A stretch of 64,000 nucleotides of DNA from Bacillota bacterium (GCA_021768085.1 JAETOJ010000013.1:2448-66447), one strand, 5' to 3'; shown: positions 46,885-64,000, counted from the first letter of the stretch. Made by a program: numbers and translations. The notes: generated by a model not told the origin, from the letters alone.

Positions 46885-47568
46885 TCATGCCGGAGGATAC
46901 TCCGTGCACAGCAGCCGGTAGGGGGGCTCGTCCTCCTCAATGACGGGGAACCGGCCCACAGGCGGGTTGAAGCGGTTGTCCGTGTTGTCGTCGTTGCACT
47001 GGCTCACCTCGCCGATGAGTACGTTGCCGGTGCCGGGCTCCACCTGGAAGTCGTGGTAGAGCCGGGGCTGAATGGAGATGCTCATGCCCGGCTCCAGCCG
47101 GAGCTGAGTGCCCGCCGGCACGGTGCGAACACAGCCGTCCAGATGAACCGTAACCTCACTCTCCCGGTCGATCTCCTCGTCGGTCAGGGAGTTGAACACC
47201 CGGATCAGCAGCACGCCGCCCCCACGGTTGATGATGTCCTCCATTTTGTACCAATGGAAGTGGTTGGGGGAATACTGGCCCTCCTTCAGAAACAGCAGCT
47301 TCTCTGCATAGGGCTTCCGGTACTTATCCGCCAATTTCAGGTTGCCGTTGCGCAGGGTGATCAGGGAGAAGCCCACCTCGTCAAAGCGGCCCAGGCCGTA
47401 GTCCGTGATGTCCCAGCCCAGCATATTGTCCCGAACCTCGTCATATTCGTGACCCTTGTGGGCCCAGTCCTCCGGCGTGAAGCGGCAGAAGGGGGGCAGG
47501 GCGAACCGGCAGTCCCGGATCATCCCCTCCATCTCCCGGAGGGCGGCGTTGATCTCGCTTCGTTTCAT
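46885..47568 (-). CDS. D-lyxose/D-mannose family sugar isomerase (cupin)
   Basis: MKRSEIN, GWDITDYG, YAEKLL, PNHFHWYKMEDIINRGGG, GEVSQCNDDNTDNRF motifs. Confidence 0.88.
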   Translation of the reverse strand: MKRSEINAALREMEGMIRDCRFALPPFCRFTPEDWAHKGHEYDEVRDNMLGWDITDYGLGRFDEVGFSLITLRNGNLKLADKYRKPYAEKLLFLKEGQYSPNHFHWYKMEDIINRGGGVLLIRVFNSLTDEEIDRESEVTVHLDGCVRTVPAGTQLRLEPGMSISIQPRLYHDFQVEPGTGNVLIGEVSQCNDDNTDNRFNPPVGRFPVIEEDEPPYRLLCTEYPPA

Positions 47569-47593
47569 CGTGTCAACCTTCCTTTCCGGCGGC

Positions 47594-48043
47594 TCACAGC
47601 CTGAATTTGACCACGGCCCGGCTCACCGGCATGGCCTCCCCCAGCTGCACCTTGACCATGTGGGCGTCCTCGGGGAATACGATGAGCACATCGTCCGCCG
47701 CCATGGAGTACCAGCTGCGCACCGGGCCCTCAAAGCCCAGGAAGTCCTCATCGTCCTTTCGGACAGTCTGGGTCAGCTCCGAGGCGTCGGACACGCCGAT
47801 CCGCTCCTGCCCCGTGATCATGATGTGGATGTCGCCATAGTGGGCATGGCCCTCCCAGGCGGCCTGTTTCTCCGGAATGGTGGTGTAGTCCAGCCGGTTG
47901 ATGTAGACGTTGTCGCCGTCCACCTCGTTGCGGCCCGGGGCCAGGCTGGCCAGATCTGCCTGGGCCAGGTGCCGGATGGCGGTGTCCAGGGCGGGGCACA
48001 GGCCCAGGTAGCGATCCAGGTGCGCGCGCTTCACATAGATCAT
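47594..48043 (-). CDS. YhcH/YjgK/YiaL family protein (NanQ-like)
   Basis: WEGHAHYGDIH and FPEDAHM motifs. Confidence 0.88.
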   Translation of the reverse strand: MIYVKRAHLDRYLGLCPALDTAIRHLAQADLASLAPGRNEVDGDNVYINRLDYTTIPEKQAAWEGHAHYGDIHIMITGQERIGVSDASELTQTVRKDDEDFLGFEGPVRSWYSMAADDVLIVFPEDAHMVKVQLGEAMPVSRAVVKFRL

Positions 48044-48247
48044 GGAAAAATTCTCCCTTCTTGACAGCGCGGCCCATGCCGGAAGGCGGTTTTGCCCCGG
48101 CAGATCCGCGGATTTCCATAAAAGGATAGCACAGTTTTCTCCGATTTTCAATAGCTTGCGGCACCGGATCCCGGTTGAGGTGAAAAGAAGTGCACAAGAG
48201 AGGGAGGGTACCCAACGGCAGAACTTGTAGAAAAAGTAAAATAATGT

Positions 48248-48276
48248 TTGACACTATGCGCAATATGGTGTATGAT
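48248..48276 (+). promoter_or_regulatory. SigA promoter of the Opp-type/NanA operon
   Basis: TTGACA-17 bp-TATGAT. Confidence 0.8.
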
Positions 48277-48379
48277 GAATACGTTGAGAGGCCGTTCTTT
48301 GGTGAAGTTGCCAAGAACGTCGGCCATCTCCTCTGACGGCTCAGGCCGCCACACGGAAAACCATAAGGAGGAAGAATTG

Positions 48380-50032
48380 ATGAAAAGAATTGCGTCTCTG
48401 CTGCTCGCCCTGTGCATGGTGCTTGCGCTGTGCGCCTGCGGCGGCACCCCCAGCGGCAACAACCCCAGCAATCCGCCGGCAAACAACAGCCAGTCCGGCG
48501 GGCAGCCCTCCGGCAATGAGGGCGTGGGCGGCACCGCCTACCCCAACCCCCTCCAGGACGTGCGCGTCCGTCAGGCCCTGTGGTATGCCATTGACATGGA
48601 CGCCATTGTGGACGGTCTGTGGAGCAACACCGTCATCGCCGCCCACAAGTCCCTGGTGCCTGAGGGCGCCTGGCAGGCGGACGGCCTAACCGAGTACAAG
48701 TACGACCCCGAGAAGGCCAAGGAACTGCTGGCTGAGGCGGGCTGGGACGGCAGCTACACCCTGAAGGCCGTCTACTACACCGGCAACCTGCTGGACACCA
48801 TCACCGCCATCAAGGGCTATTGGGAGGCCGTGGGTGTGAAGATGGAGTTCGATCTCCTCACCGACAACCTGACGGTTCTGCTGTGGACTCCCTCCCCCGA
48901 CGGCGTCAAGTCCGGTGTTGACTGGGATCTGTGCTTCGCGGGCACTAACGCCCTGACCCTGGGCGAGCTCTACAACCGCCACCACTCCACCGCCAACAAC
49001 AACTCCACCGTGCTGTGGGACAAGGATCTGGACGCCCTCATCGACAAGGCCAAGGTAGCGGTGACCACCGAGGATCAGAAGGCGGCCTACGACGCCATCC
49101 AGAAGTACGAGAACGAGAACGTGGAGACCATCCCCCTGTTCTACATCCCCTCCTGGATCATCACCTCCAAGCATCTGGACATGAAGGGCAACGCCCCCGG
49201 CAACGATCAGTTCTGCTATCAGAAGAACATTCTGGACTGGACCATCGACCGCGCCGACAAAACCATGTACACCAACACGGGCGCTGTCAATGCCCTGGAG
49301 CACACCGCCACCAACCCCGGCCTGTTCTGGCACCAGGAGATCGTGTTTGACCGTTTGCTGAACGCCGACACCAGCCTGACCGCCTCCGACGGGATGCTGG
49401 CCGAGAGCTATGACGTGTCCGATGACGGCAAGGTCATCACCTTCAAGCTCCGCGAGGGCGTGAAGTGGCACGACGGCGAGCCCTTTACTGCCGAGGATGT
49501 GAAGTGGACCTTCGAGTACTACTGCACCGTACCTGGCGCCAACACTGTGCTGACCGACGTCATTAACGATGCCTCCTCCATCGAGGTGGATGGGAACACC
49601 GTCACCTTCACCTTCAACAACCCGCAGCCCAACGCCCTGACTGTGTTCTCCCAGTGGTCCGTGCTGCCCAAGCACTGCCTGGAGAATGTGACCCCGGAGA
49701 ACTTCGCCGCCGACACCTTCTGGCAGAATCCCATCGGCACCGGCCCGTTCAAGGTGGAGAGCGTCAAGCTGGGCGAGTATACCACCCTGGTGCGCAACAA
49801 CGACTACTTCAAGCCTGGCACCGGCAATATCGAGAAGATCTATATGTATCCGTCCAGCGACGCGGGCGATGAAAACCTCATCACCAACGCCATGGCCGAC
49901 AAAATTGACTACGCCTTCTGTAAGGATTCCTCCCAGGTGCAGCAGGTGCAGGATATGGCCGGCTTCAATGTGGACACCGTCAATGTGACCTTCCCGCGGT
50001 ACATCTTCCTCAATATGTTTGAGCGCAGCTAA
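48380..50032 (+). CDS. Family 5 (Opp/Dpp-type) ABC solute-binding lipoprotein, circularly permuted
   Basis: Lipobox LALCAC; DVRVRQAL..AID and YDPEKAKELLAEAG come before LAESYDVSDDGKVITFKLREGVKWHDG and PIGTGPF. Confidence 0.88.
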   Translation: MKRIASLLLALCMVLALCACGGTPSGNNPSNPPANNSQSGGQPSGNEGVGGTAYPNPLQDVRVRQALWYAIDMDAIVDGLWSNTVIAAHKSLVPEGAWQADGLTEYKYDPEKAKELLAEAGWDGSYTLKAVYYTGNLLDTITAIKGYWEAVGVKMEFDLLTDNLTVLLWTPSPDGVKSGVDWDLCFAGTNALTLGELYNRHHSTANNNSTVLWDKDLDALIDKAKVAVTTEDQKAAYDAIQKYENENVETIPLFYIPSWIITSKHLDMKGNAPGNDQFCYQKNILDWTIDRADKTMYTNTGAVNALEHTATNPGLFWHQEIVFDRLLNADTSLTASDGMLAESYDVSDDGKVITFKLREGVKWHDGEPFTAEDVKWTFEYYCTVPGANTVLTDVINDASSIEVDGNTVTFTFNNPQPNALTVFSQWSVLPKHCLENVTPENFAADTFWQNPIGTGPFKVESVKLGEYTTLVRNNDYFKPGTGNIEKIYMYPSSDAGDENLITNAMADKIDYAFCKDSSQVQQVQDMAGFNVDTVNVTFPRYIFLNMFERS

Positions 50033-50051
50033 GTGACCTTGATGTGAAACG

Positions 50052-50082
50052 CACGGGGGCCGGCGTTTTGCCGGCCCCCGTG
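50052..50082 (+). terminator. Hairpin after the SBP gene
   Basis: cacgggggccggc-gtttt-gccggcccccgtg. Confidence 0.65.
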
Positions 50083-50138
50083 ATGTACTTCACAATGTAA
50101 ATTTTTAGAAAAGAAAGTTGGAGGAAAGGGGCGGTTCC

Positions 50139-51089
50139 ATGCTGAATTTTACACTGCGCAAGCTGATCGGAATGATTCCCATGCTGATCATCATCACCTT
50201 TCTGATCTACTGGGGGATCGAGCTGATGCCTGGCGACGTCATCGACTTTCTGATCCCCATGGATCAGCTGGCGGAAATGTCGGCGGAGGAAATCGCCGCC
50301 TTCAAGGCGGCCAAGGGGCTGGATGGCCCCATGATCGTCCGGTACCTGAGCTGGCTCAAGGACGTGTGTACCGGAAACCTGGGCTTTTCCCTGCAGAACA
50401 ATATGCCCGTGAGCGAGCTGATGATGCAGAAGCTGCCCGCCACCATTGAGCTGTCCCTGGCGGCGCTGGTGATCTCCACCGTGCTGGGCATCCTCCTGGG
50501 CGTAGTCTCCGCCCTGAAAAAGGGGAAGATCGCCGATAATGTGCTGACCGTGGCCGGCATGATCGGCGTGGCCATCCCCCAGTTCCTGTTTGGTATCTTC
50601 TGCATTATCCTGTTCTGCCTGACGCTGAACTGGTTCCCGGTGGGCCAGCGGGGGGACGGCGGGCTGCTCAGCGAGCTGCATCACCTGTTCTTACCCGCCT
50701 TTGTGCTGGGCATCTCCCAGACGGCGGGCGTCATGCGGTACTCCCGCTCCAGTATGCTGGACTCCATGAACCGGGACTATGTAAAGACCGCCCGGGCCAA
50801 GGGCCTGCCGGAGTGGAAGGTCAATATGTACCACGGCTTCCGTGTGGCCTGTACGCCCGTGATGGTGCTGATCGGTTTCCGTCTGCCCACCCTGATCAGC
50901 GGCGCCATCGTGATTGAGAACATTTTCCAGTGGCCCGGCGTGGGCCGTTGGTTTACCGACGCGATCAAGACCCAGAATACCCCCATCATTATGTCGGTTG
51001 GTTTATTTATGGTGCTGATGGTGCTGTTGTCCTCCCTGCTGGTGGACATCCTCACCGCAGTGCTCGACCCGAGGGTGAAGCTATCATGA
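50139..51089 (+). CDS. Opp/Dpp-type ABC permease (OppB-like)
   Basis: GNLGFS, PATIEL, DYVKTARAKGL, FQWPGVG, DPRVK motifs. Confidence 0.92.
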   Translation: MLNFTLRKLIGMIPMLIIITFLIYWGIELMPGDVIDFLIPMDQLAEMSAEEIAAFKAAKGLDGPMIVRYLSWLKDVCTGNLGFSLQNNMPVSELMMQKLPATIELSLAALVISTVLGILLGVVSALKKGKIADNVLTVAGMIGVAIPQFLFGIFCIILFCLTLNWFPVGQRGDGGLLSELHHLFLPAFVLGISQTAGVMRYSRSSMLDSMNRDYVKTARAKGLPEWKVNMYHGFRVACTPVMVLIGFRLPTLISGAIVIENIFQWPGVGRWFTDAIKTQNTPIIMSVGLFMVLMVLLSSLLVDILTAVLDPRVKLS

Positions 51090-52024
51090 ACATGAAAACG
51101 AAAAAAACGGCCCTTGACCGCAAGCTGGACAAAATTCGGGTTGCGGAAGAAAGCGGAAAGCTGGGCACCAAGCTGACCAACCGGACGCTGCGCAAGCTGA
51201 CGTCCAACAAGCTGGCGGTCTTCGGTGCGATCCTGTTTGTGGTGATCTGCGTGCTGTGCTTTGGCGCTCCCCTGTTCACCAGGTATTCCCCCACGGAGTT
51301 CTCCCTGACGGAGATCCAGGCGAAGCCCTCCCTGGCCCACATCTTCGGCACCGATCAGATGGGCCGGGATATCTGGAGTCGTATGCTCTACGGCGGCCGG
51401 ATCAGTATCATCGTCGGCCTGGGCAGCGCTCTGGGCGCCGCCCTGCTGGGGGTCACCCTGGGGATGTACGTGGGCTACCTGGGCGGATGGGTGGACAAGA
51501 TTTTGATGAAGCTCGCGGATATCTTCATGTCCATCCCCCAGATGGTGATGATCATCATCATCGTGGCCCTGGTGGGCCAAAGCCTGCAAAACCTGATCAT
51601 CATCTTTATCCTCACCGGCTGGCCCTCCATGTACCGTATGGCCCGGAGCAAGGTGCTCTCCCTCCGGGAGGAGGAATTCGTCCAGTCCCTGCGGGCCTTC
51701 GGCATCTCCCGGACGAAGATCGCCTTCAAGCATATGCTGCCCAACGCCCTGGGCCCCATTGTGGTGAACATCACCCTGTCCACCGCCATGTTCATCCTTC
51801 AGGAGGCGTCCCTGTCCGTGCTGAACTACGGCGTGCCCATGGAGCTGGCCACCTGGGGCAATATTATCAGCGTGATTACCAACTCTGGCACCATCCGGTT
51901 CGACTGGCTGGACAAGTGGTGGATGTGGCTGCCCTGCTCCATCATGCTGATCCTGTTTGTGCTGTCCATCAACTTCATCGGGGATGGTATGCGGGACGCG
52001 TCCGATCCCACCCAGATCGGCTGA
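51086..52024 (+). CDS. Opp/Dpp-type ABC permease (OppC-like)
   Basis: HIFGTDQMGRDIWSRMLYGGRISI; EEFVQSLRAFG; HMLPN motifs. Confidence 0.92.
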   Translation: MNMKTKKTALDRKLDKIRVAEESGKLGTKLTNRTLRKLTSNKLAVFGAILFVVICVLCFGAPLFTRYSPTEFSLTEIQAKPSLAHIFGTDQMGRDIWSRMLYGGRISIIVGLGSALGAALLGVTLGMYVGYLGGWVDKILMKLADIFMSIPQMVMIIIIVALVGQSLQNLIIIFILTGWPSMYRMARSKVLSLREEEFVQSLRAFGISRTKIAFKHMLPNALGPIVVNITLSTAMFILQEASLSVLNYGVPMELATWGNIISVITNSGTIRFDWLDKWWMWLPCSIMLILFVLSINFIGDGMRDASDPTQIG

Positions 52025-52037
52025 GAGGTGAACGAAT

Positions 52038-53063
52038 ATGAGTGAAAGCCAGAACAACGTCGTATTGAGCGTGAAGGATCTGCACGTCTATTTCTACACC
52101 AACCAGCGGTGCAACAAGGTGCTGCGGGGGGTCAGCTTCGACGTGAAGCGGGGCCGGACGCTGTGCATCGTGGGCGAGTCCGGCTGCGGCAAGTCGGTGA
52201 CCGCTAACTCCATCCTGCGCCTGCTGCCTGAACTGAGCCGCATTGAGGAGGGCTCCATCACCTACTACAAGGAGGATGGCACTGAGATCCGCCTGGATCA
52301 GCTGGAGAAGAACGGCAAGGAGATGCGCGCCATTCGAGGCCAGGACATCGCCATCATCTTCCAGGATCCCATGACCGCCCTGAACCCGGTGTTCACCGTG
52401 GGCTACCAGATTGAGGAGATGCTCCGCCAGCACAAGCCGGGGCTGTCCAAGGAGCAGTACAAGAAGGAGGCCATTGAGGATCTGGCCGACATGGGCATCC
52501 CCGCCCCAGACATCCGGTACGGCGAGTATCCCCACCAGTTCTCCGGCGGGATGCGGCAGCGCTCCATGATCGCCATGGGTATGTCCTGCGACCCCAAGAT
52601 CCTGTTGGCCGACGAGCCCACCACCGCTCTGGATGTGACCATCAGCGCTCAGATCTTCGACCTGATGAACGACCTGAAGCGGGAGCATGACACCGCCATC
52701 ATGATGATCACCCACAACATGGGCGTAGTGGCCGAGATGGCCGACGAGGTGGCCGTCATGTATATGGGCAACATCGTGGAGTACGGCCCGGTGGAGGACA
52801 TCTTCACCAACCCGGCCCACCCCTATACCAAGGCGCTGCTGCGCTCCATCCCCGTGCTGGGCAAGGGCAAGAATCAGCAGCTGGAGCCCATCCGGGGCTC
52901 CACGCCCGACCCCTTCAACCGCCCCAAGGGCTGCCAGTTCTGCCCCCGGTGCGACTATGCCTGCCCCCGCTGCGAGGAGGAGATGCCCGACGAGGAGTGG
53001 GTCAAGGAGGGGCACTATACCCGCTGCTTCAACTACAGGGAGGTGATGGCAGATGGCAAATAA
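52038..53063 (+). CDS. Opp/Dpp-type ABC ATPase (OppD-like)
   Basis: GESGCGKS, YPHQFSGGMRQR, DEPTTALD, HPYT, C-terminal Cys cluster. Confidence 0.94.
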   Translation: MSESQNNVVLSVKDLHVYFYTNQRCNKVLRGVSFDVKRGRTLCIVGESGCGKSVTANSILRLLPELSRIEEGSITYYKEDGTEIRLDQLEKNGKEMRAIRGQDIAIIFQDPMTALNPVFTVGYQIEEMLRQHKPGLSKEQYKKEAIEDLADMGIPAPDIRYGEYPHQFSGGMRQRSMIAMGMSCDPKILLADEPTTALDVTISAQIFDLMNDLKREHDTAIMMITHNMGVVAEMADEVAVMYMGNIVEYGPVEDIFTNPAHPYTKALLRSIPVLGKGKNQQLEPIRGSTPDPFNRPKGCQFCPRCDYACPRCEEEMPDEEWVKEGHYTRCFNYREVMADGK

Positions 53064-54102
53064 CGAGAAGGAGATCCTGCTGAAGGTGCGGGGGGCCAAG
53101 ACCTATTTCCCCATCAAGAAGGGCCTGATGAAGCGCACGGTGGGCTATGTGAAGGCGGTGGACGATATCAGCCTGGACGTGTACCGGGGCGAGACCCTGG
53201 GCCTGGTGGGCGAGTCCGGCTGCGGCAAGACCACCCTGGGCAAGTCCATCCTCCAGCTGGTGCCCGTCACCGAGGGCAGCATGGAGTATAAGTTTGAGGA
53301 CGGCTTCAAGGATCTGCGCAAGCTGCCCCGGAAGGAGCTGGATGACGCCCGGCAGAAGATCCAGATTGTGTTCCAGGACCCCTACTCCTCCCTGAACCCG
53401 GCCTTTACCATCTTCGGCTCCCTGGAGGATCCGCTGATCAAGTTCGGCATGAAGGATAAGCAGGAGCGAATCAAGAAGATCGGCGATCTGCTGGAGTCCG
53501 TCAACCTGCCTCGGGACTACATGACTCGTTATCCCAACGAGTTTTCCGGCGGACAGCGCCAGCGTATCGGCATTGCCCGGGCGCTGTCCGTGGGGCCGGA
53601 GCTCATCATTTGCGACGAGGCCGTGTCCGCTCTGGACGTGTCCATCCAGGCCCAGGTGCTGCGGCTGCTGAACCAGCTGAAGGAAGAATACAAGCTGACC
53701 TACATCTTCATCACCCACGACCTGTCGGTGGTGGAATACCTGGCCGACCGGATCGCGGTGATGTACCTGGGGCGCATTGTGGAGCTGACCACCTCGGAGG
53801 AGCTGTTCGCCAACACCCTGCACCCCTACACCAAGGCCCTGCTCAGCGCCATCCCCGTGGCCGATGTGGCCCAGAAGAAGCACCGCATCCCCCTCCAGGG
53901 GGACGTGCCCTCTCCGGCCAATCCGCCGTCTGGCTGCACCTTCCACCCCCGCTGTCCGGAGTGCCAGGAGCGGTGCAAGAACGAGCGGCCCGTGCTGGAG
54001 GAATATATCATTGACGGCGTTAGCCACTTTGTCTCCTGCCACAAGGTAAAGGAGATGATGGAGGCAAAGGGCGCGGTGAAAAAGGAGAGCGTATCAGAAT
54101 GA
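53053..54102 (+). CDS. Opp/Dpp-type ABC ATPase (OppF-like)
   Basis: GESGCGKT, YPNEFSGGQRQR, DEAVSALD, PSGCTFHPRC motifs. Confidence 0.94.
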   Translation: MANNEKEILLKVRGAKTYFPIKKGLMKRTVGYVKAVDDISLDVYRGETLGLVGESGCGKTTLGKSILQLVPVTEGSMEYKFEDGFKDLRKLPRKELDDARQKIQIVFQDPYSSLNPAFTIFGSLEDPLIKFGMKDKQERIKKIGDLLESVNLPRDYMTRYPNEFSGGQRQRIGIARALSVGPELIICDEAVSALDVSIQAQVLRLLNQLKEEYKLTYIFITHDLSVVEYLADRIAVMYLGRIVELTTSEELFANTLHPYTKALLSAIPVADVAQKKHRIPLQGDVPSPANPPSGCTFHPRCPECQERCKNERPVLEEYIIDGVSHFVSCHKVKEMMEAKGAVKKESVSE

Positions 54103-55034
54103 GTCGTGATATCCGTGATTTCAAGGGCGTGATCCCGGCGGTTCTGTCCATCTTTGACCAGGACGAGAACCTGGACGAGGCGGGCACCCGGGACTTTATC
54201 CGCTACCTGCTGTCCTTTGATATCGGGGGGCTGTACCTCACCGGATCCACCGGCGAGACCTTCTTGATGAATTCCGAGGAGCGGATGCACCAGGTGGAGA
54301 TTGTGATGGAGGAGGTGGGCGACAAGGTTCCGGTGGTGGTGCATGTGGGCGCCATGTCCACCCGGGCCTCCATCGAGCTGGCCAAGCACGCCGAACAGTG
54401 CGGTGCGGCAGGCATATCCAGCGTGCCCCCCTTCTACTTCAAGTTTAATGAGGATCAGATCTTCCACTACTATGAGGATCTGGCGGGCTCTACCAGCCTG
54501 CCCATGATCGTCTACAACATCCCCCTGGCGGGGCTGATGACGGTGGAACAGGTCATCCGTCTGTCGGAGATTGAGAACGTCAAGGGTGTGAAGTACACTG
54601 CTACCGCCCTCTACGAGGTGCCCCTGATCCGGGAGAGCTGCAAGCCCGGGTTCCAGATCTACGGCGGCTGCGACGAGCTGGGCAGCTCCAACATCGCCCT
54701 GGGGGTGGATGGGATCATCGGCTCGTTCTACAATGTGATTCCGGATCTCTACCTGAAGATCTGGCAGGCGGTGAAGGCATCCGACGTATCCACTGCCGCC
54801 CAGCTTCAGGGCAAGGCGGTGCACATCATCATGGCGGGTCTTCACAGCGGCAGCATGATGGCCTGCATCAAGGTGTGGCTGCGTGGGGGCGGCGTGCCAG
54901 CTGGGTACGCCAGAAGGCCCTTCTCCAACTTTACGCCGGAGGAGGAGCGGAAGCTGTTGGATGAGCTATGCGCCATTGATGAGACGGACGGGCTGGGCCT
55001 GGATATTGTCCGGCGGATCAAGGCCCGCGCATAA
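54099..55034 (+). CDS. N-acetylneuraminate lyase-like aldolase (DHDPS/NanA family)
   Basis: GLYLTGSTGE (NAL-type Ser rather than the DHDPS GTTGE), VYNIP, Schiff-base GVKYT. Confidence 0.8.
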   Translation: MSRDIRDFKGVIPAVLSIFDQDENLDEAGTRDFIRYLLSFDIGGLYLTGSTGETFLMNSEERMHQVEIVMEEVGDKVPVVVHVGAMSTRASIELAKHAEQCGAAGISSVPPFYFKFNEDQIFHYYEDLAGSTSLPMIVYNIPLAGLMTVEQVIRLSEIENVKGVKYTATALYEVPLIRESCKPGFQIYGGCDELGSSNIALGVDGIIGSFYNVIPDLYLKIWQAVKASDVSTAAQLQGKAVHIIMAGLHSGSMMACIKVWLRGGGVPAGYARRPFSNFTPEEERKLLDELCAIDETDGLGLDIVRRIKARA

Positions 55035-55080: not shown

Positions 55081-55120
55081 CATGCGAAAAAGTCTGCCCT
55101 CGGGCAGACTTTTTTGCATG
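55081..55120. terminator. Long inverted repeat / terminator after the lyase gene
   Basis: catgcgaaaaagtctgccc-tc-gggcagacttttttgcatg. Confidence 0.75.
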
Positions 55121-55257: not shown

Positions 55258-55286
55258 TTGAAAATCAGCGCCTCTTGTGATATGCT
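55258..55286 (+). promoter_or_regulatory. SigA-type promoter of the dlt-like operon
   Basis: TTGAAA-17 bp-TATGCT. Confidence 0.55.
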
Positions 55287-55424: not shown

Positions 55425-56954
55425 ATGGTTTACAATGTGACGTCCTGTTTGGACAATTCCGCCGGAGCCTATCCCGACAAAATTGCAGCGGCGGACGGGC
55501 AGGCTGCGCTGACCTATGGGCAGCTACTGGATCAAGCCCGCCGGATCGGAACCGCGCTGGCCGGCAGGCTGGACGGCGCCCGAGGCAAGCCGGTGTTCAT
55601 TTGCATCGGCCGCTGGGTGGAGTGCCTGCCCGCGTTTTTCGGCACTGCCGCCAGTGGCAATTTTTATGTGCCCATCGATCCCAGCCTGCCCGACCGGCGG
55701 CTGGCGGAGATCTATGCCACCATGAAGCCCCGGGTGGTTGTCACCACCCGGCGGGATACCCGGCCCCTGCCCTTCCCCGGCGCAGAGATCCTGTCCCTGG
55801 AAGAGCTGCTTTTGACCCCGCCGGACGAGCCGCTGCTCCGCCGGATCGGGGTAGAGATCACCGGAGAAAACCCGCTGTACTGTATCTTCACCTCCGGCTC
55901 TACCGGCGTGCCCAAGGGCGTGCTGGTGAGTCACCGCTCCGTCCTCAACATGACGGAGCAGTTCACCGAGGCCTTCGGGCTGGATCACACGGCGGTGTTC
56001 GGCAATCAGGCCCCTTTTGACTTTGACGTCTCAGTGAAGGATATCTACCTTACCATCCGAACCGGCGCCAGGCTGGAGATCCTGGAAAAGCCGCTGTTCT
56101 CCTCCCCTCGGCGGTTGATCGAGCGGATGGACGAGCGGGGCGTGAACACCATCATCTGGTCTGTCTCCGCTATGAAGATTCTCTCTGCGCTGAAGACCTT
56201 TGAGACGGTTCGGCCCAGCCATCTGCGCCGGGTAATGTTTTCCGGCGAGGCCATGCCCTGCAAGGTGCTCAACGACTGGATGCGTCATCTGCCGGAGGCC
56301 CGCTTTGTCAACCTGTACGGACCTACAGAGATCACCTGCAACTGCGCCTATTATCCGGTGGATCGGGCCTTTGATGACAGCGAGGCGCTGCCCATCGGCG
56401 GGGCCTTTCCCAACACCCAGGTGTTTTTGCTGGATGGGGATCGGGCGGTCACCGGGCCCGGCGAGCCGGGGGAGATCTGCGTGGCCGGAACCTGCCTGGC
56501 CCTGGGCTACTACAATAACCCGGAGCGCACTGCCGCGGTCTTCTGCCAGAATCCGCTGCAGACGGCCTGGCCGGAGAAAATTTACCGCACCGGAGATCTG
56601 GGCAGCTGGAACGAGCGGGGCGAGCTGATGTTTTTGGGCCGGGCGGACTCCCAGGTCAAGTATATGGGGTTCCGCATCGAGCTGGGTGAGATCGAGACGG
56701 CGGCCAATGCCGTCCCCTTTGTATCCTCCGCCTGCTGCCTGTTCGACGCTGACCGGGAGCAGCTGTGCCTGTTCTACCAGGCGGAGGGGCAGGACGACAA
56801 GGGGCTCATCGCCGCCCTGCGGGAGGCGCTGCCCCGGTTTATGGTGCCCGCGCGGCTATACTGGTTTGAGCGGCTGCCGGAGAACCGCACCGGAAAAATT
56901 GACCGCGCCGCGCTCCGGCGCGACTATATTGAGCAAACGATCAGGAGGAACTGA
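55425..56954 (+). CDS. Stand-alone adenylation domain protein (DltA-like AMP ligase)
   Basis: A3 FTSGSTGVPKG, A4 FDVSV, A5 NLYGPTE, A7 YRTGDL, A8 GRADSQVK..GFRIELGEIE, A10 GKIDR. Confidence 0.92.
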   Translation: MVYNVTSCLDNSAGAYPDKIAAADGQAALTYGQLLDQARRIGTALAGRLDGARGKPVFICIGRWVECLPAFFGTAASGNFYVPIDPSLPDRRLAEIYATMKPRVVVTTRRDTRPLPFPGAEILSLEELLLTPPDEPLLRRIGVEITGENPLYCIFTSGSTGVPKGVLVSHRSVLNMTEQFTEAFGLDHTAVFGNQAPFDFDVSVKDIYLTIRTGARLEILEKPLFSSPRRLIERMDERGVNTIIWSVSAMKILSALKTFETVRPSHLRRVMFSGEAMPCKVLNDWMRHLPEARFVNLYGPTEITCNCAYYPVDRAFDDSEALPIGGAFPNTQVFLLDGDRAVTGPGEPGEICVAGTCLALGYYNNPERTAAVFCQNPLQTAWPEKIYRTGDLGSWNERGELMFLGRADSQVKYMGFRIELGEIETAANAVPFVSSACCLFDADREQLCLFYQAEGQDDKGLIAALREALPRFMVPARLYWFERLPENRTGKIDRAALRRDYIEQTIRRN

Positions 56955-56957
56955 ACC

Positions 56958-57185
56958 ATGGAAAAGCTGCTGCGTATTCTGGAGGAAAACTGCCCCGGGA
57001 TCGACGTTCTGGGGAGTGACCGGCTGATTGACGACGAGATTTTGACCTCTCTGGATGTGGTGGTTCTGGTGGGGGAGCTCAATGACGCCTTCGGCGTGTC
57101 CATCACGGTGGACGACCTGGTGCCGGAGAATTTTAACTCCGTTCAGGCCATGTATGATCTCATCTGCCGGCTCGGGGGCAAGTAA
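56958..57185 (+). CDS. Carrier protein (DltC/ACP-like)
   Basis: 75 aa, acidic; ILTSLDVV contains the phosphopantetheine Ser; PENFNSV. Confidence 0.88.
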   Translation: MEKLLRILEENCPGIDVLGSDRLIDDEILTSLDVVVLVGELNDAFGVSITVDDLVPENFNSVQAMYDLICRLGGK

Positions 57186-57188
57186 GCG

Positions 57189-58766
57189 ATGTCAGTCAAC
57201 AGCGCCGCCTTCCTGCTGTTTTTGGCCGTGGCGGTGGCCGTCTATTACCTGGTGCCCAAGCGAGGGCGGTACCTGGTACTGCTGGCGGCCAGCGCGTTCT
57301 TCTACCTGTGCTACAGCCTGAAGGCCGCGATCTATCTGCTGTTTACCGTGGCGGCCACCTATGGCGCCGCCCTGGGTCTGGGCGCCCTGCGCCGCAGGGA
57401 GCGGGCAGAAGCGGCGGCGGAAGGGGCGGACGCAGCGGCTGTCAGGCGGGTCTGGCTGAGGCGCCGGCGGCTGGCGTTGACCGCCATTTTGGTGCTGAAC
57501 TTTACCACGCTGGCCCTGTTCAAGTATCTGGACAGCTGGCTGGGAACCGCCAACAGCGTGCTGGCGCTGGCAGGGCTGTCCTTCCGGTTCCGGCCGCTGG
57601 AGCTGCTGCTGCCGCTGGGGATCTCCTTTTATATCTTCCAGACCTCCGGCTACCTCATCGATGTCTACCGGGGAAAAGTGGAGCCGGAGCGGCACTTTCT
57701 GAAGTACGCGCTCTTTGCCGCCTACTTTCCCCAGATGATCCAGGGGTCCATCAACCGCTTCCAGAAGCTCCAGCCCCAGCTGATTGGGGGAAACGAGTTC
57801 TCCGCCGATCAGTTCAAGTACGGCGTGCAGCTGATGATTTGGGGAATGCTGAAAAAGCTGCTCATCGCGGACACCCTGGCCCCGGCGGTGACCGAGGTGT
57901 TTGACCACTTCACCCAGTACAGCGGCGCGGTGATTCTGCTGGCCGTCGTCCTCTACTGCCTCCAGCTCTACTGCGATTTCTCGGGGGGCACCGATTTAGT
58001 CCGAGGCGCCTCCCAGCTGTTCGGGGTGGAGATGATGGAGAACTTCCGCCGCCCCTACTTTGCCCATACCGTGGACGAGTTCTGGCGGCGGTGGCACATC
58101 TCCCTGGGGGAGTGGATGAAGGACTACCTCTTTTATCCCCTGGCCCTATCTAAGGGGCTGAACCGGCTGGGGAAGGCCCTGCGCCCGGTGGTGGGTCCCC
58201 GGCTGGGCAAGCTGGCGGTGCCCTGCATTTCCACTTTGGTGGTGTTCCTGATGGTGGGCATCTGGCAGGGACCCGGTCTGAGCAACATCGCCTATGGGTT
58301 GTGGAACGGCGGACTGATGTCCCTGGCTATGATAGCCCAGCCGGCGTCGGTGAAGCTCCGGGAGCGGCTGGGGATTGGGCACGAAACCCGGTGGTTCCGC
58401 GTGGTTCAGGTGGCCCGCACCTTCGCGCTGGTGGTGGTGGGGCGGTATTTCTCCCGCTCCAGCCAGCTGCTCCAGGCCCTGCGGATGCTCAAGCGGACGG
58501 TGTGCAGCTTCGGCTGGCGCTCCCTGGGCCCGGACGCGCTGTTCAGCTTCGGCCTCACTCCGGTGAATTGGGCCGTCCTGCTGATCTCTACGGCGGTTCT
58601 GGTGGCGGTCAGCGCCCTTCAGGAGCGGGGGATCCCCATCCGGAAGACCCTGGAGAAAAAGCACTGGGCCATTCAATTCACGGTGCTTTTTGTGGGAATT
58701 CTGGTGATTTACGTCTTTCTCAGCGGAGATTACATCCCCGCGGGCTATGTGTACGAAAGCATTTAG
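57189..58766 (+). CDS. MBOAT family acyltransferase (AlgI/DltB-like)
   Basis: PLGISFYIFQ, YFPQ, YCDFSG, NFRRPYFA...FWRRWHISL; VGIWQG at the position of the usual GxWHG. Confidence 0.92.
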   Translation: MSVNSAAFLLFLAVAVAVYYLVPKRGRYLVLLAASAFFYLCYSLKAAIYLLFTVAATYGAALGLGALRRRERAEAAAEGADAAAVRRVWLRRRRLALTAILVLNFTTLALFKYLDSWLGTANSVLALAGLSFRFRPLELLLPLGISFYIFQTSGYLIDVYRGKVEPERHFLKYALFAAYFPQMIQGSINRFQKLQPQLIGGNEFSADQFKYGVQLMIWGMLKKLLIADTLAPAVTEVFDHFTQYSGAVILLAVVLYCLQLYCDFSGGTDLVRGASQLFGVEMMENFRRPYFAHTVDEFWRRWHISLGEWMKDYLFYPLALSKGLNRLGKALRPVVGPRLGKLAVPCISTLVVFLMVGIWQGPGLSNIAYGLWNGGLMSLAMIAQPASVKLRERLGIGHETRWFRVVQVARTFALVVVGRYFSRSSQLLQALRMLKRTVCSFGWRSLGPDALFSFGLTPVNWAVLLISTAVLVAVSALQERGIPIRKTLEKKHWAIQFTVLFVGILVIYVFLSGDYIPAGYVYESI

Positions 58767-58775
58767 GAGGTGCCC

Positions 58776-60611
58776 ATGTCTTCTAAAAAATGGCTCGTCA
58801 TGCTCCCTCTCACCCTTCTGCTGGTCATGGGCTGCTGCGCGGTGTTCAATATGCTCATTGACCCCTTCGGGGTATTCGGTGACCCCATTTTGGACTGGTA
58901 CAGCTACAATGAAACCAACAATCCCCGGGTGGCCAAGCTGGCCTGGTTGGATGAGCACTACCAGCAGTACGACTCCTATGTGATCGGCTCCTCCTCCGCG
59001 GCCTCCTACAACGTGGAGGAGCTCAACGACTATCTGGACGCCAGCTTCTACAACCTGTTCGTCTATGGCTGCGACACCAGAGATTATCGGGATTTTGCCG
59101 CCTATGTACTGGAGCACTACACGGTGAAAAATATTGTGCTCAACCTGGGTATCAATGAGGCTGTCTATTACGACGAGGGGGAGGACGACCTTAACGGCAG
59201 GATGCACGCCAAGGCCAGTGGTAGAAGCCTTCCGCTGTTCTACCTGGAATACGCGCTGACTACCACCCTACAATCGGTGGAAAAGCTGGCGTTCCGGCTT
59301 CGGGACACGGAGCTGCCACAGGTGTTCGACGTGTTCCTGGTGGAATCGGGATGCTACGACAAGCGGGTGCGGGACGTGGAGAAAATCGGCGATCCCGCCG
59401 TCTATGATCGGGCCTACACCGGGGAGTTTTCCACCTCGGAACAAGGGGGACAACTTCCCTATGTCAAGGAGTGCGCCCAAATGGTGGCCGAGATCCGGGA
59501 TCTGTGCGCGGAGCGTGGGGTCAATTTGATGGTGATCACCTCCCCCGTCTACGCGGGCCAGTGGAATGCCTATGAGGAGAGCGCCCTGAGAGCCTACAAG
59601 ACGGCGTTGGCCGAAGTGACAGATTACTGGGACTTCAGCTGTACCCCCATCTCCTATGACAACCGCTATTTTTACGATCAGACCCATTTCCGCAACGCGG
59701 TAGGTACCATGGTGCTGGCGGAGATCTTCGGGAACGACCAGGTCTGGCGGCCGGAACGGTTCGGAGCCTGGATCACCGCGGGCAACTGCCAGACCTATCT
59801 GGACGGGCTCTTCTCTGATCCCCCCACGGCGAAGGTGGAGGACTACACGGCGGACGTTCCGGTGCTGCTTTACCACAGCATTGTGGAGGAGCCGGGCAGC
59901 TATTTAGAGGTGTCCCCGGAGACCTTTGACGCGCAGATGCGATTTCTGGCGGAAAATGGCTATCACGCGGTCACAACCCAGGAGCTTATTGACTATGTCT
60001 ATCACGGAGGAGAGTTGCCAGACAAGCCGGTGCTCATCTCCTTTGACGACGGCTATCAGAACAACTATGACTATGCGTGGCCCATTTTGAGGGAGCACGA
60101 CCTGAAGGCCACGATATACGCCATCGGCGTATCGGTGGGCCATGACCGCTATAAGGACACTCAGTTTGAGATGACCCCCCACTTTGGCTTTGAGGAGGCC
60201 CGTCGGATGGTGGAATCCGGCGTGATCGACGTGCAGTCCCACACCTATGATATGCACCAGTGGCCCCCCTTTGAGTCGGGGGATCGGATCCGGCAAACCA
60301 TGGCCCCGCTGGAGGGCGAGATCTATGATGACTATGCCGCTGCCCTGAACAGGGATGTCGCCGCCTACAACCAAATCGCAAAAAAAGAGCTGGGCTATGA
60401 GTTCACATCCCTGGCCTTCCCCGGCGGCGACTATACGACGCTGACCGAGGTGCTGGTGCACCAGGCGGGCATCCCGGTGACGATGTCCACCCGGACGGAC
60501 AGTCGCAATATCCTGGTGCGGGGCTTGCCCCAAAGCCTCTATGCGCTGTCCCGCTGGTCTGTTATGGAGGAAACCACCCAGGCTGACCTGCTGGAGGTGC
60601 TGAACGGATAG
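58776..60611 (+). CDS. Membrane-anchored SGNH-like (DltD/AlgJ-type) domain fused to a CE4/NodB polysaccharide deacetylase (IcaB/PgaB-like)
   Basis: N-terminal TM, IGSS and DQTH motifs; C-terminal PVLLYH, ISFDDGY, SHTYDMH, LAFPGG. Confidence 0.82.
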   Translation: MSSKKWLVMLPLTLLLVMGCCAVFNMLIDPFGVFGDPILDWYSYNETNNPRVAKLAWLDEHYQQYDSYVIGSSSAASYNVEELNDYLDASFYNLFVYGCDTRDYRDFAAYVLEHYTVKNIVLNLGINEAVYYDEGEDDLNGRMHAKASGRSLPLFYLEYALTTTLQSVEKLAFRLRDTELPQVFDVFLVESGCYDKRVRDVEKIGDPAVYDRAYTGEFSTSEQGGQLPYVKECAQMVAEIRDLCAERGVNLMVITSPVYAGQWNAYEESALRAYKTALAEVTDYWDFSCTPISYDNRYFYDQTHFRNAVGTMVLAEIFGNDQVWRPERFGAWITAGNCQTYLDGLFSDPPTAKVEDYTADVPVLLYHSIVEEPGSYLEVSPETFDAQMRFLAENGYHAVTTQELIDYVYHGGELPDKPVLISFDDGYQNNYDYAWPILREHDLKATIYAIGVSVGHDRYKDTQFEMTPHFGFEEARRMVESGVIDVQSHTYDMHQWPPFESGDRIRQTMAPLEGEIYDDYAAALNRDVAAYNQIAKKELGYEFTSLAFPGGDYTTLTEVLVHQAGIPVTMSTRTDSRNILVRGLPQSLYALSRWSVMEETTQADLLEVLNG

Positions 60612-60740: not shown

Positions 60741-60784
60741 AAAATCAACCGGCGGCGGGCAATGCCCGCCGCCGGTTGATTTTT
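60741..60784. terminator. Bidirectional terminator
   Basis: aaaatcaaccggcggcgggc-aat-gcccgccgccggttgatttt. Confidence 0.9.
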
Positions 60785-60856
60785 GCTATAAACAGAAAAA
60801 TGTTGCAGGCTGCCCGTATCAGGAGACAGTGTGCCCGTTGTGCTCTGCCCCAGCGA

Positions 60857-61699
60857 TCATGATGCCGACCCCGTATGGCAATCCTCAAGCGGGCCGGCGT
60901 CCGCTCCCCAGACCTCTATCTGCGTCAACGCGGGGAACGGAGAGGGATCGTCCTCGTCCTTGATCAGCCGCTCCAGCTTCAGCCAGCGCACCACCCGTGG
61001 CGCAAGATCAATCTGCTGAGGTTCGCCGGTTTTGACAAACTCCGCTCGGATCTGTGAGCCATCGGAAAACTGGACGCTGCACTGCTTCCACCAGTTGTCA
61101 TGGGGAAAGTCCGCCCGAAGCGTAAACACCAGGCGATCCACCCGCACCTCGCGCCCGAACTCCAGCAACAGCTCCGCCTCCGGATCCCGGTTGATCCCCC
61201 AGCTCTGGTAGGGCCAGGCGCCGTGGCTGCTGTTGGCGTAACAGCCGTCAATGGCGTTGCGGGCGGCAAAGACCGATTCCCCCCGTGTTTCCACATTGGC
61301 CGAAGCGTGGGGGAAAAATCCCGTGTTGTCATGGCTGTCCAGGGGGTTGAGCGCCAGATTCCGGTAGGCGCCTGCCTCCCGGGGGCTGGCCTGCCTGGCC
61401 CACAGTAGATGGACGTCCCCCGTAAAGGATTTGGGGGAATAGCTCACCCGCTTTTCCCCAAAGGGCACCGCCAGGCAGAACTCGCCGGACAGGTAGCCAA
61501 AGGTTTCCGCCATGCTGTCCTCCAGCAGGGCCACCACATAGCCAGGGGCGCTGCCGCTCATGCGGATCACATCCCCCTCCACATAAGGCGCGGCGTACAC
61601 CAGGGTCACATGATCCCGCCCGCTGGCCTGGGCCTTTACCTGTCCATCCGCCCCGGTAATTGTAATGCTCAGTTCCATTGTGCTGTGCTGAATCTCCAT
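60857..61699 (-). CDS. Carbohydrate-binding protein (galactose-binding/discoidin-like fold)
   Basis: YRNLALNP, FAARNAIDG, SWGINRDPEAELLLEFGR, LRADFPHDNWW; GGAGG RBS. Confidence 0.7.
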   Translation of the reverse strand: MEIQHSTMELSITITGADGQVKAQASGRDHVTLVYAAPYVEGDVIRMSGSAPGYVVALLEDSMAETFGYLSGEFCLAVPFGEKRVSYSPKSFTGDVHLLWARQASPREAGAYRNLALNPLDSHDNTGFFPHASANVETRGESVFAARNAIDGCYANSSHGAWPYQSWGINRDPEAELLLEFGREVRVDRLVFTLRADFPHDNWWKQCSVQFSDGSQIRAEFVKTGEPQQIDLAPRVVRWLKLERLIKDEDDPSPFPALTQIEVWGADAGPLEDCHTGSAS

Positions 61700-61729: not shown

Positions 61730-63460
61730 CTATACGCTGCCTGTCACCAGGGTGACCAGCCGATGGGTTCCCGCCTCCAAATGCAGGCGGATTGTCGGGA
61801 TACGGGTAAGGGGGTGAAGCAGGTTGGTGTTGGGCCAGGCCTTCACCAGCACCGGGCTCCCGCCGCCCTGCTCGCACCGAATGCCGCTGACGCCCCAGGG
61901 GAAGCGGGCGGTGACCCCGTCCTGCGTCCACTCCACCATGTCCTCGGAATAGGGCAGGCCATCCTGCTCCGCCGGAATGGCGAAGCCGCCGTCGGCCACG
62001 TCGATGGGCCGGTCGGTGGTGATCACATAGCTGCGCCGGTGGCTGGGGAAGCAGGGCGTCACCGTAACCTCCACCGTCACCCCACGCAGGGGGGAAAAGC
62101 GGCGCCAGATATGATCCGGTTCCGCCCGGAAGCCGTCAAACCCCCGCTGCATCCGCCAGTGCTCCTCCCCCGCCTCGCTCACCGCCAGGCAGTTGTCAAA
62201 GGCCCCTTCCTCCAGGCTGTCCCCCCGGGGCACGGAGAACCCAAAGCGGCTGGAATAGACCAGCTTTTCATACTTAGCTGCCACCTGCCCCAGCTGATTG
62301 ACGCACATCTGCCCCGCCGGGAACAACTGCACCTGGTTGGGGGCGCGGGCCGCCAGCATCCGGGCCTGTGGGAGGAGCTTCTGCTCCGCCAGCTCCGGGA
62401 TCTCCTCCCGTGCCTGCCAGAAGGGGTGCTCCTCGGGCAGCGCCAGACACAGAAACGCCTTCAGCCCCCAATAGGGTGAGCCGGGGGCGTTGTACGCTTC
62501 GCTCATGAACAGGTTCGGGTAGCCGTAGCCCACGGTCAAAAGCCCGCTGGAGTCAAAAATCGGCTGGGCCAGCCAGTCCCGTAGGTTGCCCAGAAGCCGC
62601 GATTTGAGCACCCCCCAGGGCAGGCACTCCACCCCCGCGAAGGCCAGCGCGGCAAAGAATGCGCCTTGCCCAAACCGGTAGGTTAGGCTCCGCCCAAAGG
62701 GCACCGCCCGCCCGCAGTCCTCAAACCAGTACAGATAGTCCCGGGCAAACTCTGCCGCCCGCTCCTTGAACCGGCGGCTGCGCTCGGGATCTTCCTTCTC
62801 CATGCACCAGGCGTAGATCAGGCCGTAGTAGTGCATTCCAAAGGGAATATAATAATCCATCTGGGTGGGCTCACCGTCGCAGTACCAGCCGCCGCCCAGA
62901 TACCAGCCCTCCAGCCGCCCAAGGTCGTCCTCCAGCCGCTCCGCGTCCCAATCCCAGCCCATGCGCCGGAAGGCGGCCTGGATCAGCACCCGGAAAAAGA
63001 GCCAGTTGTTTTGGGGCAGTCGTAGCTCCAGCGTGGCGGATAGCCACCGGTGCAGGTTCCGGGCCTCCCGCTCCGACAGTGCCAGCCGATCCCCACAGAG
63101 CATCAGCGTGACGGAGATGGCCGCCATCTCCACGATTTTCTGATCGCAATCGAAGGGATCCCCCCAGTAGGCGGGATGCTCCGGATCGGTGCCGTTTACC
63201 AGTCCCTCCCGGAACAGGGGCAGCCACGATTCCCCCCCGCCTTGGCTCCACAGGGGGCCCAGCCCCCACAGCATTCGGGAAAACGCCTCCATCCGGGCGG
63301 AGCGCTCCCCATAGTGGGCGGCGTGATCCCCCAGGTGCAGCCCGGCGTTTCCGGTGGTAAAGCGGCCCCTGATCGGCTCTAAAAGCCGTAAAAGGGCCCG
63401 CTCCACATCCCCGCGGGTGCGCAAGGGATTTTGAGAAAGTGGCAGATCAAATCGTTCCAT
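61730..63460 (-). CDS. DUF2264 domain-containing protein
   Basis: MEAFSRMLWG, GTDPEHPAYWG, DQKIVEMA, NNWLFFR, GWYCDG, GRSLTYRF, ESYN/EAYNAPGSPYW motifs; GGAGG RBS. Confidence 0.88.
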   Translation of the reverse strand: MERFDLPLSQNPLRTRGDVERALLRLLEPIRGRFTTGNAGLHLGDHAAHYGERSARMEAFSRMLWGLGPLWSQGGGESWLPLFREGLVNGTDPEHPAYWGDPFDCDQKIVEMAAISVTLMLCGDRLALSEREARNLHRWLSATLELRLPQNNWLFFRVLIQAAFRRMGWDWDAERLEDDLGRLEGWYLGGGWYCDGEPTQMDYYIPFGMHYYGLIYAWCMEKEDPERSRRFKERAAEFARDYLYWFEDCGRAVPFGRSLTYRFGQGAFFAALAFAGVECLPWGVLKSRLLGNLRDWLAQPIFDSSGLLTVGYGYPNLFMSEAYNAPGSPYWGLKAFLCLALPEEHPFWQAREEIPELAEQKLLPQARMLAARAPNQVQLFPAGQMCVNQLGQVAAKYEKLVYSSRFGFSVPRGDSLEEGAFDNCLAVSEAGEEHWRMQRGFDGFRAEPDHIWRRFSPLRGVTVEVTVTPCFPSHRRSYVITTDRPIDVADGGFAIPAEQDGLPYSEDMVEWTQDGVTARFPWGVSGIRCEQGGGSPVLVKAWPNTNLLHPLTRIPTIRLHLEAGTHRLVTLVTGSV

Positions 63461-64000
63461 CCCACATCGACCTCCAATCAGTATCAATAGTTGCATTTGT
63501 AATAAAGTAGATGGAACAGAGGTTCCACGAATAGTAATCTCCCGGTTGTGGGAAATAGGATGCGTCCCGAGGAGGAGCAGGCTCGCGCCCGCCTGGTGTC
63601 TTGTAGCACCGCCGCCAGGCAACAGAACAAGCCGTGTCCGAATATCCGCCAGCTCCCATATACTCGTAAAGTAACTATATAATACCTGAAAAAAAGGAGG
63701 TTGTCCACTCAATATTTTCTGCTCGCGGGATAGCCTCCCTCTGCGTCCTTTTCTGGAAAGTAGCCGCGAGACGGGGCACAGCGCAGGGACATGATAGAGG
63801 GGCTTTCGTTGTCTGCCACGGATGCACCATCTACTGGAAGATGGGAAAAATGGTTGGACGAGGGAGAACTAATTATCTCCAGACAGGTGAAAACCCTCCT
63901 TCGGATCCGCTGCAATCAAAGCGTAATCAAACGAAGGAGGGGGTTCACTGGCAGAAACGGCATATCAATAAGGAGGTAAAAAGCGCAGGCAATATTGGCC

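Follow-up and report, generated by a model that had tools for sequence, protein, structure and literature searches.

An apparently undescribed operon family that joins a Dlt-type carrier-protein donor to a PatA-type MBOAT relay and an SGNH-like/CE4 fusion protein

When bacteria acylate envelope polymers on the outer side of the membrane, they do so mainly by MBOAT-SGNH relays. The MBOAT of the Dlt pathway passes an acyl group to a Tyr in the C-terminal FxYxxF hexapeptide of the DltX microprotein, and in the acetyl-CoA systems this motif is fused to the MBOAT itself, behind two extra helices; the acyl-shuttle model has been established experimentally for DltX and PatA (PMC12148441). In the current view a carrier protein is found only in Dlt, while the other systems use acyl-CoA and a shuttle motif fused to the MBOAT, and the combination of a fused shuttle motif with a carrier protein is stated as not found in known non-Dlt pathways (PMC12148441). 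Here we describe a four-gene operon with this combination at positions 55425-60611 of a 64,000-nucleotide (nt) stretch of DNA from a gut bacterium of the family Oscillospiraceae (Bacillota; GCA_021768085.1 JAETOJ010000013.1:2448-66447), which we call the window and whose numbering is used for all coordinates given without a locus or contig handle. We consider it probable that the operon encodes a carrier-protein-dependent MBOAT-SGNH relay that acylates an envelope glycan containing N-acetylglucosamine (GlcNAc) outside the membrane, that it is assembled from Dlt-type and PatA/AlgI-type parts, and that its last enzyme is bifunctional. Together with its relatives it is a conserved variant among MBOAT-SGNH systems for envelope acylation, apparently not described before, and a hybrid of a Dlt-type donor and a PatA-type relay; literature searches on MBOAT proteins, DltD, deacetylase fusions and the pairing of FkbH with an MBOAT in the cell envelope returned no description of it.

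The four open reading frames (ORFs) all lie on the + strand and are separated by gaps of 3 nt. They encode a 509-aa stand-alone adenylation enzyme of DltA-like architecture that is not the DltA equivalog (55425..56954), a 75-aa carrier protein with a PP-binding match (56958..57185), a 525-aa MBOAT with a DltB-like core and two extra C-terminal transmembrane (TM) helices (57189..58766), and a fusion protein of 613 aa, counted from the GTG at 58770, in which a TM anchor, a DltD-like SGNH domain and a CE4 de-N-acetylase follow one another (58770..60611). The initial annotation of this DNA had described a tight operon of an A domain, a carrier, an MBOAT and a membrane-anchored SGNH-like protein, with CE4 on the same chain and without a polysaccharide synthase, and this description is borne out. 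The AMP-binding profile matches, the PP-binding and MBOAT profiles score above their cut-offs, and neither a glycan synthase nor a dltX gene is found in the operon or its flanks.

The MBOAT scores 45.4 bits against the PF03062 cut-off of 27, and its residues 138-417 align with the DltB structures 6bug and 8jem (E 9e-19). Beyond this DltB core lie two extra hydrophobic TM helices, 459-477 and 494-512, and since the loop between them (478-493) is Lys/Arg-rich and positively charged, the C-terminal tail is expected outside the membrane. The tail ends in the hexapeptide YVYESI (58746..58763, +), a variant of the FxYxxF shuttle motif as defined in PMC12148441, whose flanking residues deviate from FxYxxF and whose Tyr522 is the predicted acyl acceptor. 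Among the surveyed loci, the shuttle Tyr is invariant in all related MBOATs with an intact C-terminus; of 115 Gln-type clusters, 107 keep it. No separate DltX-type small ORF ending in FxYxxF lies in or beside the operon, a true DltX (L100:6643-6834) serving for comparison; one small ORF 3' of the last gene was rejected as a DltX candidate, being neither conserved nor hydrophobic. The initial annotation had remarked on the lack of dltX. The gene is indeed not found, but it is not a missing part, because the MBOAT has the PatA/AlgI architecture of two extra helices and a C-terminal Tyr hexapeptide; by analogy, the YVYESI tail should take over the role of DltX. The MBOAT departs from DltB at Gln360 (CAG, 58266..58268, +), which stands in the column of the catalytic His when GIWQG is aligned with DltB GFWHG (His336; 6bug/8jem) and with the MBOATs of the clade loci. 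A second His, H303 in RRWH, is retained.

The operon therefore has a mixed set of likenesses. It has four parts in common with DltABCD/DltX, which D-alanylates teichoic acids in Bacillota: a stand-alone adenylation enzyme, a small carrier, an MBOAT whose core resembles DltB, and an extracellular transferase that is anchored in the membrane, folds like DltD and bears a Ser/Asp/His set. By analogy it would also share the relay logic of thioester to Tyr ester to Ser ester to polymer. Unlike Dlt, it has the gene order A-C-B-D, and its Tyr hexapeptide is fused to the MBOAT. The two extra MBOAT helices, the C-terminal [F/Y]xYxx[F/I/V] and the single-pass SGNH-like partner are instead those of the PatA/PatB, AlgI/AlgJ and WssH-type systems, whose tail is FIYANF rather than YVYESI. 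Those systems, however, use acetyl-CoA without a carrier or adenylation enzyme (PMC12148441), whereas the window operon encodes a carrier-protein donor.

The extracytoplasmic partner is encoded by the last gene, for which the ATG at 58776 is probably the true start because homologues begin MSSKKW. A single TM helix at residues 8-26 (58791..58847, +) forms the N-terminal membrane anchor, and the homologue alignment shows two near-invariant motifs after it on the same strand, DPFGVFGD (58860-58883) and WYSYNET (58896-58916). Conserved residues are then found at the positions of SGNH blocks I, II, III and V (G-[S/C]-S75, G100, G127-x-N-E130 and D303-x-x-H306). Block I is GSSS, residues 73-76 (58986..58997, +; family consensus G-[S/C]-S), with Ser75 as the predicted nucleophile, located in the model between the end of strand 69-73 and helix 75-79. 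Block V is DQTH (59676..59687, +), the putative acid-base pair, in which D303 is invariant and H306 invariant or nearly so. The AlphaFold2 model of the full fusion protein (31 homologues) reaches a pLDDT of 90.7 and a pTM of 0.89, and the N-terminal domain modelled alone a pLDDT of 86.7. In a Foldseek search of the PDB with the N-terminal domain, the top 12 matches are all DltD (6o93, 7dxm, 6pfx, 3bma; probability 0.98-1.0, E ~1e-4), followed by PatB and TesA-type SGNH proteins. In a database of 1.84 billion proteins, a profile of this domain matches 2888 representatives, with 308 reaching E <= 1e-30. Fusions of ~600 aa are nearest to it, stand-alone proteins of ~350 aa lie further off, and in one example a stand-alone homologue is encoded directly 3' of an MBOAT gene. 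Because such stand-alone relatives exist, one of them next to an MBOAT, we take the N-terminal domain to be an unannotated family of MBOAT partners.

The C-terminal half of the fusion protein, residues ~360-613 (59847..60608, +), is matched by Polysacc_deac_1 over residues 415-569 (67.2 bits against a cut-off of 23.1). The models that describe it best, PgaB TIGR03938 (98.3 against 321.9) and IcaB TIGR03933 (61 against 248), score far below their equivalog cut-offs. Its key residues H369, D426-D427 and H491/H496 align on the YH, FDDG and SHTxxxH motifs of IcaB/PgaB, and all five are invariant among the fusion homologues. Foldseek against the PDB returns Aggregatibacter and E. coli PgaB, IcaB, PplD and BpsB for this half (E ~1e-15, target TM-scores ~0.8). 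Judged by sequence and model, the domain is an intact de-N-acetylase of the PgaB/IcaB/PplD type. It has the motif order, the metal and catalytic residues and the extracytoplasmic location of PgaB, IcaB, BpsB and streptococcal PplD, but it is fused to an acyltransferase domain, as none of those proteins is.

These features suggest a relay of five steps. The adenylation enzyme would activate an alpha-amino acid, probably not D-alanine, and, going by homology, load it onto Ser31 of the carrier. If it works as DltB-DltX and PatA do, the MBOAT would bind the loaded carrier on the cytoplasmic side and transfer the acyl group to Tyr522 of its own YVYESI tail, which the two extra helices would set outside the membrane; Gln360 stands here in place of the catalytic His, and in the Gln-bearing MBOATs the Glu directly after the shuttle Tyr may, speculatively, supply the base. 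As in DltB-DltX-DltD and PatA-PatB, the acyl-Tyr would then hand its group on to Ser75 of the DltD-like SGNH domain. The CE4 domain, whose metal and catalytic residues are intact, would de-N-acetylate an N-acetylhexosamine (HexNAc) of the same polymer, and finally the SGNH domain would transfer the acyl group to that polymer, at a hydroxyl or at the freed amine. As read from the sequence, the catalytic motifs are intact in all four proteins except for the His-to-Gln exchange, and the predicted topology is consistent with a tail and a bifunctional enzyme that both lie outside. Candidates for the polymer are peptidoglycan, a wall polysaccharide or the linkage unit of one, and a lipoglycan.

Several observations weigh against this relay. 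An MBOAT without the catalytic His could be inactive or operate differently, and motif mapping is the sole basis of the amino-acid assignment. The N-terminal 350 residues of the fusion protein have no Pfam match even at E 10, and thus none to PF04914; a phmmer search of the PDB with this domain returned nothing, hhalign against true DltD gives a probability of 0.8%, and the TM-scores of the fold matches are modest, at 0.33-0.40. With no sequence relation to DltD, "DltD-like SGNH" is a fold-level statement, and the SGNH/DltD identity given in the initial annotation stands for the fold and the conserved blocks and falls for the AlgX/DltD sequence models, which do not match. No recurrent glycan-synthesis gene emerges among the flanking ORFs clustered from 81 loci, a clustering limited by spurious antisense ORFs in G+C-rich DNA. 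The organism's own genome (2.94 Mb, 90.6% complete, the scope of all genome-wide negatives given here) contains no PgaC/IcaA synthase, unlike what would be expected beside PgaB or IcaB, and its best PgaC_IcaA match has 64 bits against 422. Since this synthase is absent, poly-N-acetylglucosamine made by a PgaC/IcaA-type enzyme appears to be excluded as the polymer.

The presence of both domains on one chain invites a more specific form of the relay, in which CE4 frees the GlcNAc amine and the SGNH domain puts the aminoacyl group there as an amide. No close homologue has the two domains apart (at least 120 clusters, 80 loci), and the two-domain model is rigid and confident, with the pTM given above. 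Consecutive enzymes are often fused, and it is established chemistry, applied here by inference, that an acyl-enzyme is attacked more readily by an amine than by a hydroxyl. However, the N-terminal domain is often found on its own, with no CE4 attached, so the transferase would have no need of a deacetylase, and all characterised MBOAT-SGNH systems make esters (PMC12148441). We regard this sub-case as rather unlikely. Extended to the whole family, in gut Clostridia, it would amount to an extracytoplasmic "N-acyl editing", in which a HexNAc is stripped of its N-acetyl group and re-acylated by an amino acid, or in sister operons by an N-acetyl-amino acid or a glycerate-derived acid, with the base of the Gln-bearing MBOATs moved to the Glu beside the shuttle Tyr; we hold this broader conjecture to be unlikely. 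The interpretation offered in the initial annotation, an activated acid relayed to a surface glycan that the same protein de-N-acetylates, possibly replacing the acetyl group, is as a whole partly supported.

PatB and Ape1 form the writer/eraser pair of peptidoglycan O-acetylation, and their genes cluster in the PatA/PatB/Ape1 locus. By that precedent, the CE4 domain could hydrolyse the ester installed by the SGNH domain, or competing O-acetyl groups, and so provide turnover or editing. Some CE4 enzymes are O-acetyl esterases, and the acetylxylan esterases 2c71 and 2cc0 are among the weaker fold matches of our domain. Its closest relatives by sequence and by fold, however, are all de-N-acetylases (PgaB, IcaB, BpsB and PplD), and it has the PgaB-type motif order and His-x4-His spacing, which makes an eraser function very unlikely.

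The relay of an amino acid other than D-alanine also has to be weighed against a divergent but otherwise ordinary dlt operon whose product would be D-alanylated lipoteichoic or wall teichoic acid, with CE4 as an unrelated passenger. The adenylation enzyme matches AMP-binding (Pfam, E 9e-65) and exceeds the cut-off of the amino-acid adenylation domain TIGR01733 (NCBIfam, 350.6 bits against 317.4). Among named single-protein models, DltA describes it best and DltB describes the MBOAT best, and the A domain shares the NQAPFxFDxSVxD and xMFxGE contexts with DltA. The carrier, above the PP-binding cut-off (28.5 bits against 20.8), aligns with true DltC in BLASTP (E 3e-5, 30% identity), which places Ser31 in ILTSLD (57048-57050, +) on the DltC phosphopantetheine Ser as the predicted attachment site. 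The own genome has no other dlt system, the window adenylation gene being its only DltA-like gene. But the operon does not group with canonical dltABCD. Its Dlt equivalog scores are far under the cut-offs (DltA TIGR01734, 290.1 bits against 559.85; DltB TIGR04091, 142.4 against 375; DltC NF003464, 17.6 against 68), the shuttle motif is fused to the MBOAT and not carried by DltX, the counterpart of His336 is Gln, and no PF04914 DltD is encoded anywhere in the genome.

The specificity code of the adenylation enzyme differs from DltA as well. We mapped the Stachelhaus positions ourselves, by motif from GrsA numbering, and checked the motif blocks against three true DltA sequences (L091-L093). At positions 235, 236, 239, 278, 299, 301, 322, 330, 331 and 517, the window enzyme reads D V K I M S L C N K (with D201, K205, S274 and K491 as its own residues), where the true DltA sequences read D L [M/L] T L C T V A K. 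The two thus differ at 236, 239 (M/L to K), 278, 301 (C to S), 322, 330 and 331. The equivalents of Asp235 and Lys517 are kept (D201 within FDVS and K491 within GKIDR), and therefore an alpha-amino acid is the expected substrate. In place of the D-Ala pocket signature (FSFDLSV[M/L]D, FLFCGE, PTExTVAVT), the window enzyme has FDFDVSVKD, VMFSGE and PTEITCNC, and by this mapping the amino acid activated is probably one other than D-alanine. Lys239 is universal in all dlt-like enzymes of the related loci and absent from DltA; we take this residue to be typical of Glu-activating nonribosomal peptide synthetase domains, a tentative hint of an acidic substrate. A riboswitch or T-box was sought with Rfam as a clue to the amino acid, and none was found in the window leader or in eight related loci.

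The related loci extend this picture to other loading chemistries. Among 185,579 species genomes surveyed, 400 have a gene for a relative of the fusion protein, and the best 80 of these were taken for locus comparison. Nearly all of these best 80 match essentially the whole fusion protein, and no fewer than 120 protein clusters have the fusion at full length; in at least 60 species-level genomes, mostly Oscillospiraceae, both the fusion and the gene order are found again. The joining of SGNH-like and CE4 domains seen in the initial annotation is thus conserved in homologous operons. Within the same family, ~15 of 151 sampled genomes have the fusion and one genome of the same genus does not, so the trait is patchy and accessory. 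A paralogue of the fusion protein was not found in the own genome.

With A for adenylation, C for carrier, M for MBOAT and F for fusion protein, the order A-C-M-F or A-GNAT-C-M-F is found in ~60 of the 80 related loci. The arrangement of the window, A-C-M-F with a Gln-bearing MBOAT, accounts for 12 loci including the window itself, to which 5 C-M-F and 3 truncated loci can be added. The commonest type is A-GNAT-C-M-F, in which the A and carrier genes are separated by one for a 263-aa protein whose C-terminal part is a GNAT domain (L029:5356-6147 and 43 other loci); 41 of the 44 retain A on the contig, and their MBOATs have His and a FIYxQF tail. The GNAT protein may N-acetylate the carrier-bound amino acid. 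Five further loci have A-C-M-F without GNAT and an MBOAT with His. In another six (L007, L014-L017 and L021), the fusion and MBOAT genes are followed by those of an FkbH-like loader and an acyl carrier protein (ACP), with a glyoxalase-family protein in three and a GDSL-like protein in one, and the MBOAT has His and a FIYA[G/N]F tail. One of these, L007:2182-9177, encodes the fusion protein, the MBOAT, the loader (FkbH_N and HAD), a 79-aa ACP, the glyoxalase-family protein and the GDSL-like protein. No A domain is present in the three FkbH-type genomes examined, and the gene content suggests that these operons deliver a glycerate-derived acyl group by the same relay. An assignment of the loci with F before MBOAT to the acetyl-CoA type was rejected, as an FkbH-like loader and ACP lie downstream in all six.

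Since the FkbH-type loci also have an ACP, the fusion protein is accompanied by a carrier-protein donor in nearly every complete locus. In the tree of the fusion protein, the FkbH-type group branches from within the Gln-type clade (SH-aLRT support 84-100), which argues that the donor module was exchanged while the acceptor-side enzyme was kept. The use of other loaders by the sister operons (A with GNAT, FkbH with ACP) further indicates that the fusion protein is a general acceptor-side module for carrier-borne acyl groups. Sister operons with FkbH or an added GNAT make no sense for D-Ala, and together with the scores and the code they leave an ordinary dlt operon quite improbable.

In four genomes where no A gene adjoins C-M-F, the sole A domain is encoded at another site, within a second A-C-MBOAT-SGNH operon that lacks CE4. 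This second dlt-like operon (L089:3536-9237, on G152:C9; also L090 and L098) encodes A, the carrier, an MBOAT with WHG and FIYNQF, and a 358-aa SGNH-like protein without CE4; in L089 and L090 it also includes a lipoprotein gene. A racemase was considered as a substrate clue and set aside as too weak, an Asp/Glu racemase gene following the operon only in L089, being absent from L098, and L090 being cut off. One A-GNAT-C-M-F locus, L080 (JBLMZJ010000113.1), comes from a metagenome-assembled genome labelled Deltaproteobacteria, and the fusion tree groups it with a Syntrophomonadaceae (Bacillota) sequence, which points to mis-binning or horizontal transfer.

The Gln360 of the window MBOAT follows the same phylogenetic lines. 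According to PMC12148441, the catalytic His is conserved throughout the MBOATs, DltB and PatA included, and is needed in them. In the related loci, MBOATs at least 52% identical to ours all have Gln and a tail of YVYE[N/S][I/V], and those ~40% identical have His and FIYxQF; the clade-specific substitutions are H360Q, Y366N, Y353F and T345P, with F520Y and I521V in the tail. We extended the comparison to the 120 closest MBOAT clusters of a 5.8-billion-protein database, where Gln360 is present in 115, Asn366 accompanies it in 113, and 107 end in [Y/F]xYE. The Gln state is maintained across these 115 clusters down to ~45% identity, and because it is so conserved and co-varies with N366 and the [Y/F]xYE tail, it is a clade character of a functional lineage and not decay. 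A dead MBOAT in a decaying or regulatory remnant, the reading to which the reported requirement for His would lead, is extremely unlikely, since the four intact frames, the conservation and co-variation of Gln with active-site and tail changes, and a gene order maintained in many genera argue for purifying selection on a working variant.

The operon family breaks the division between Dlt and acyl-CoA systems, as it joins a carrier-protein donor to a fused shuttle motif and has at least three loading chemistries, which imply surface acyl decorations beyond acetyl and D-alanyl. Its members occur widely in the Oscillospiraceae, a group of commensals abundant in the gut whose wall chemistry has hardly been explored; modifications of just this kind underlie the charge of the wall, its resistance to lysozyme and its recognition by the immune system. 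The conserved His-to-Gln exchange offers a natural test of the MBOAT catalytic mechanism, and the fusion with a de-N-acetylase provides a testable hypothesis of coupled deacetylation and acylation. Other pathways in which a DltA-like enzyme and a carrier feed an amino acid to a non-teichoic envelope component are Vibrio cholerae AlmEFG, which places glycine onto lipid A, and the Bordetella dra locus. AlmG is a lipid A acyltransferase of the cytoplasmic face and not an MBOAT-SGNH relay, and to our knowledge neither locus has a CE4 fusion.

The four genes of the window appear to form a self-contained unit, since they have their own promoter-like site (TTGAAA-17-TGnTATGCT, 55258..55286, +; a consensus match only), with the terminator-like hairpin of the upstream gene 5' of it (55092-55112), and a strong intrinsic terminator downstream, read from the sequence as a 17-bp G+C-rich stem, a 3-nt loop and a T run (60744..60785, +). 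Elsewhere in the own genome, three more MBOAT genes (C103:27542-30262, C67:112143-114770 and C25:16951-19468) encode proteins that end in FLYFRF, FIYFQF and FIYANF, respectively. Each is followed by a gene for a 360-395-aa protein, probably an SGNH-type partner, and with these the genome would have four MBOAT relay systems.

Downstream of the operon, two convergent genes on the - strand encode a 280-aa protein with a weak DUF7402 match only (60857-61699), kept beside the operon only in a 95%-identical locus (L001), and a DUF2264 protein (61730-63712). Directly upstream, positions 46885-55034 hold an Opp-type ABC transporter cluster with a DHDPS/NanA-family lyase as its last gene; a terminator separates this cluster from the operon, and it is not kept beside the operon in other genomes. 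Pfam SBP_bac_5 aligns to its family 5 solute-binding protein (48248-50032) in two separate segments, and residues 383-590 are those matched by the N-terminal half of the profile; this split match is compatible with circular permutation.

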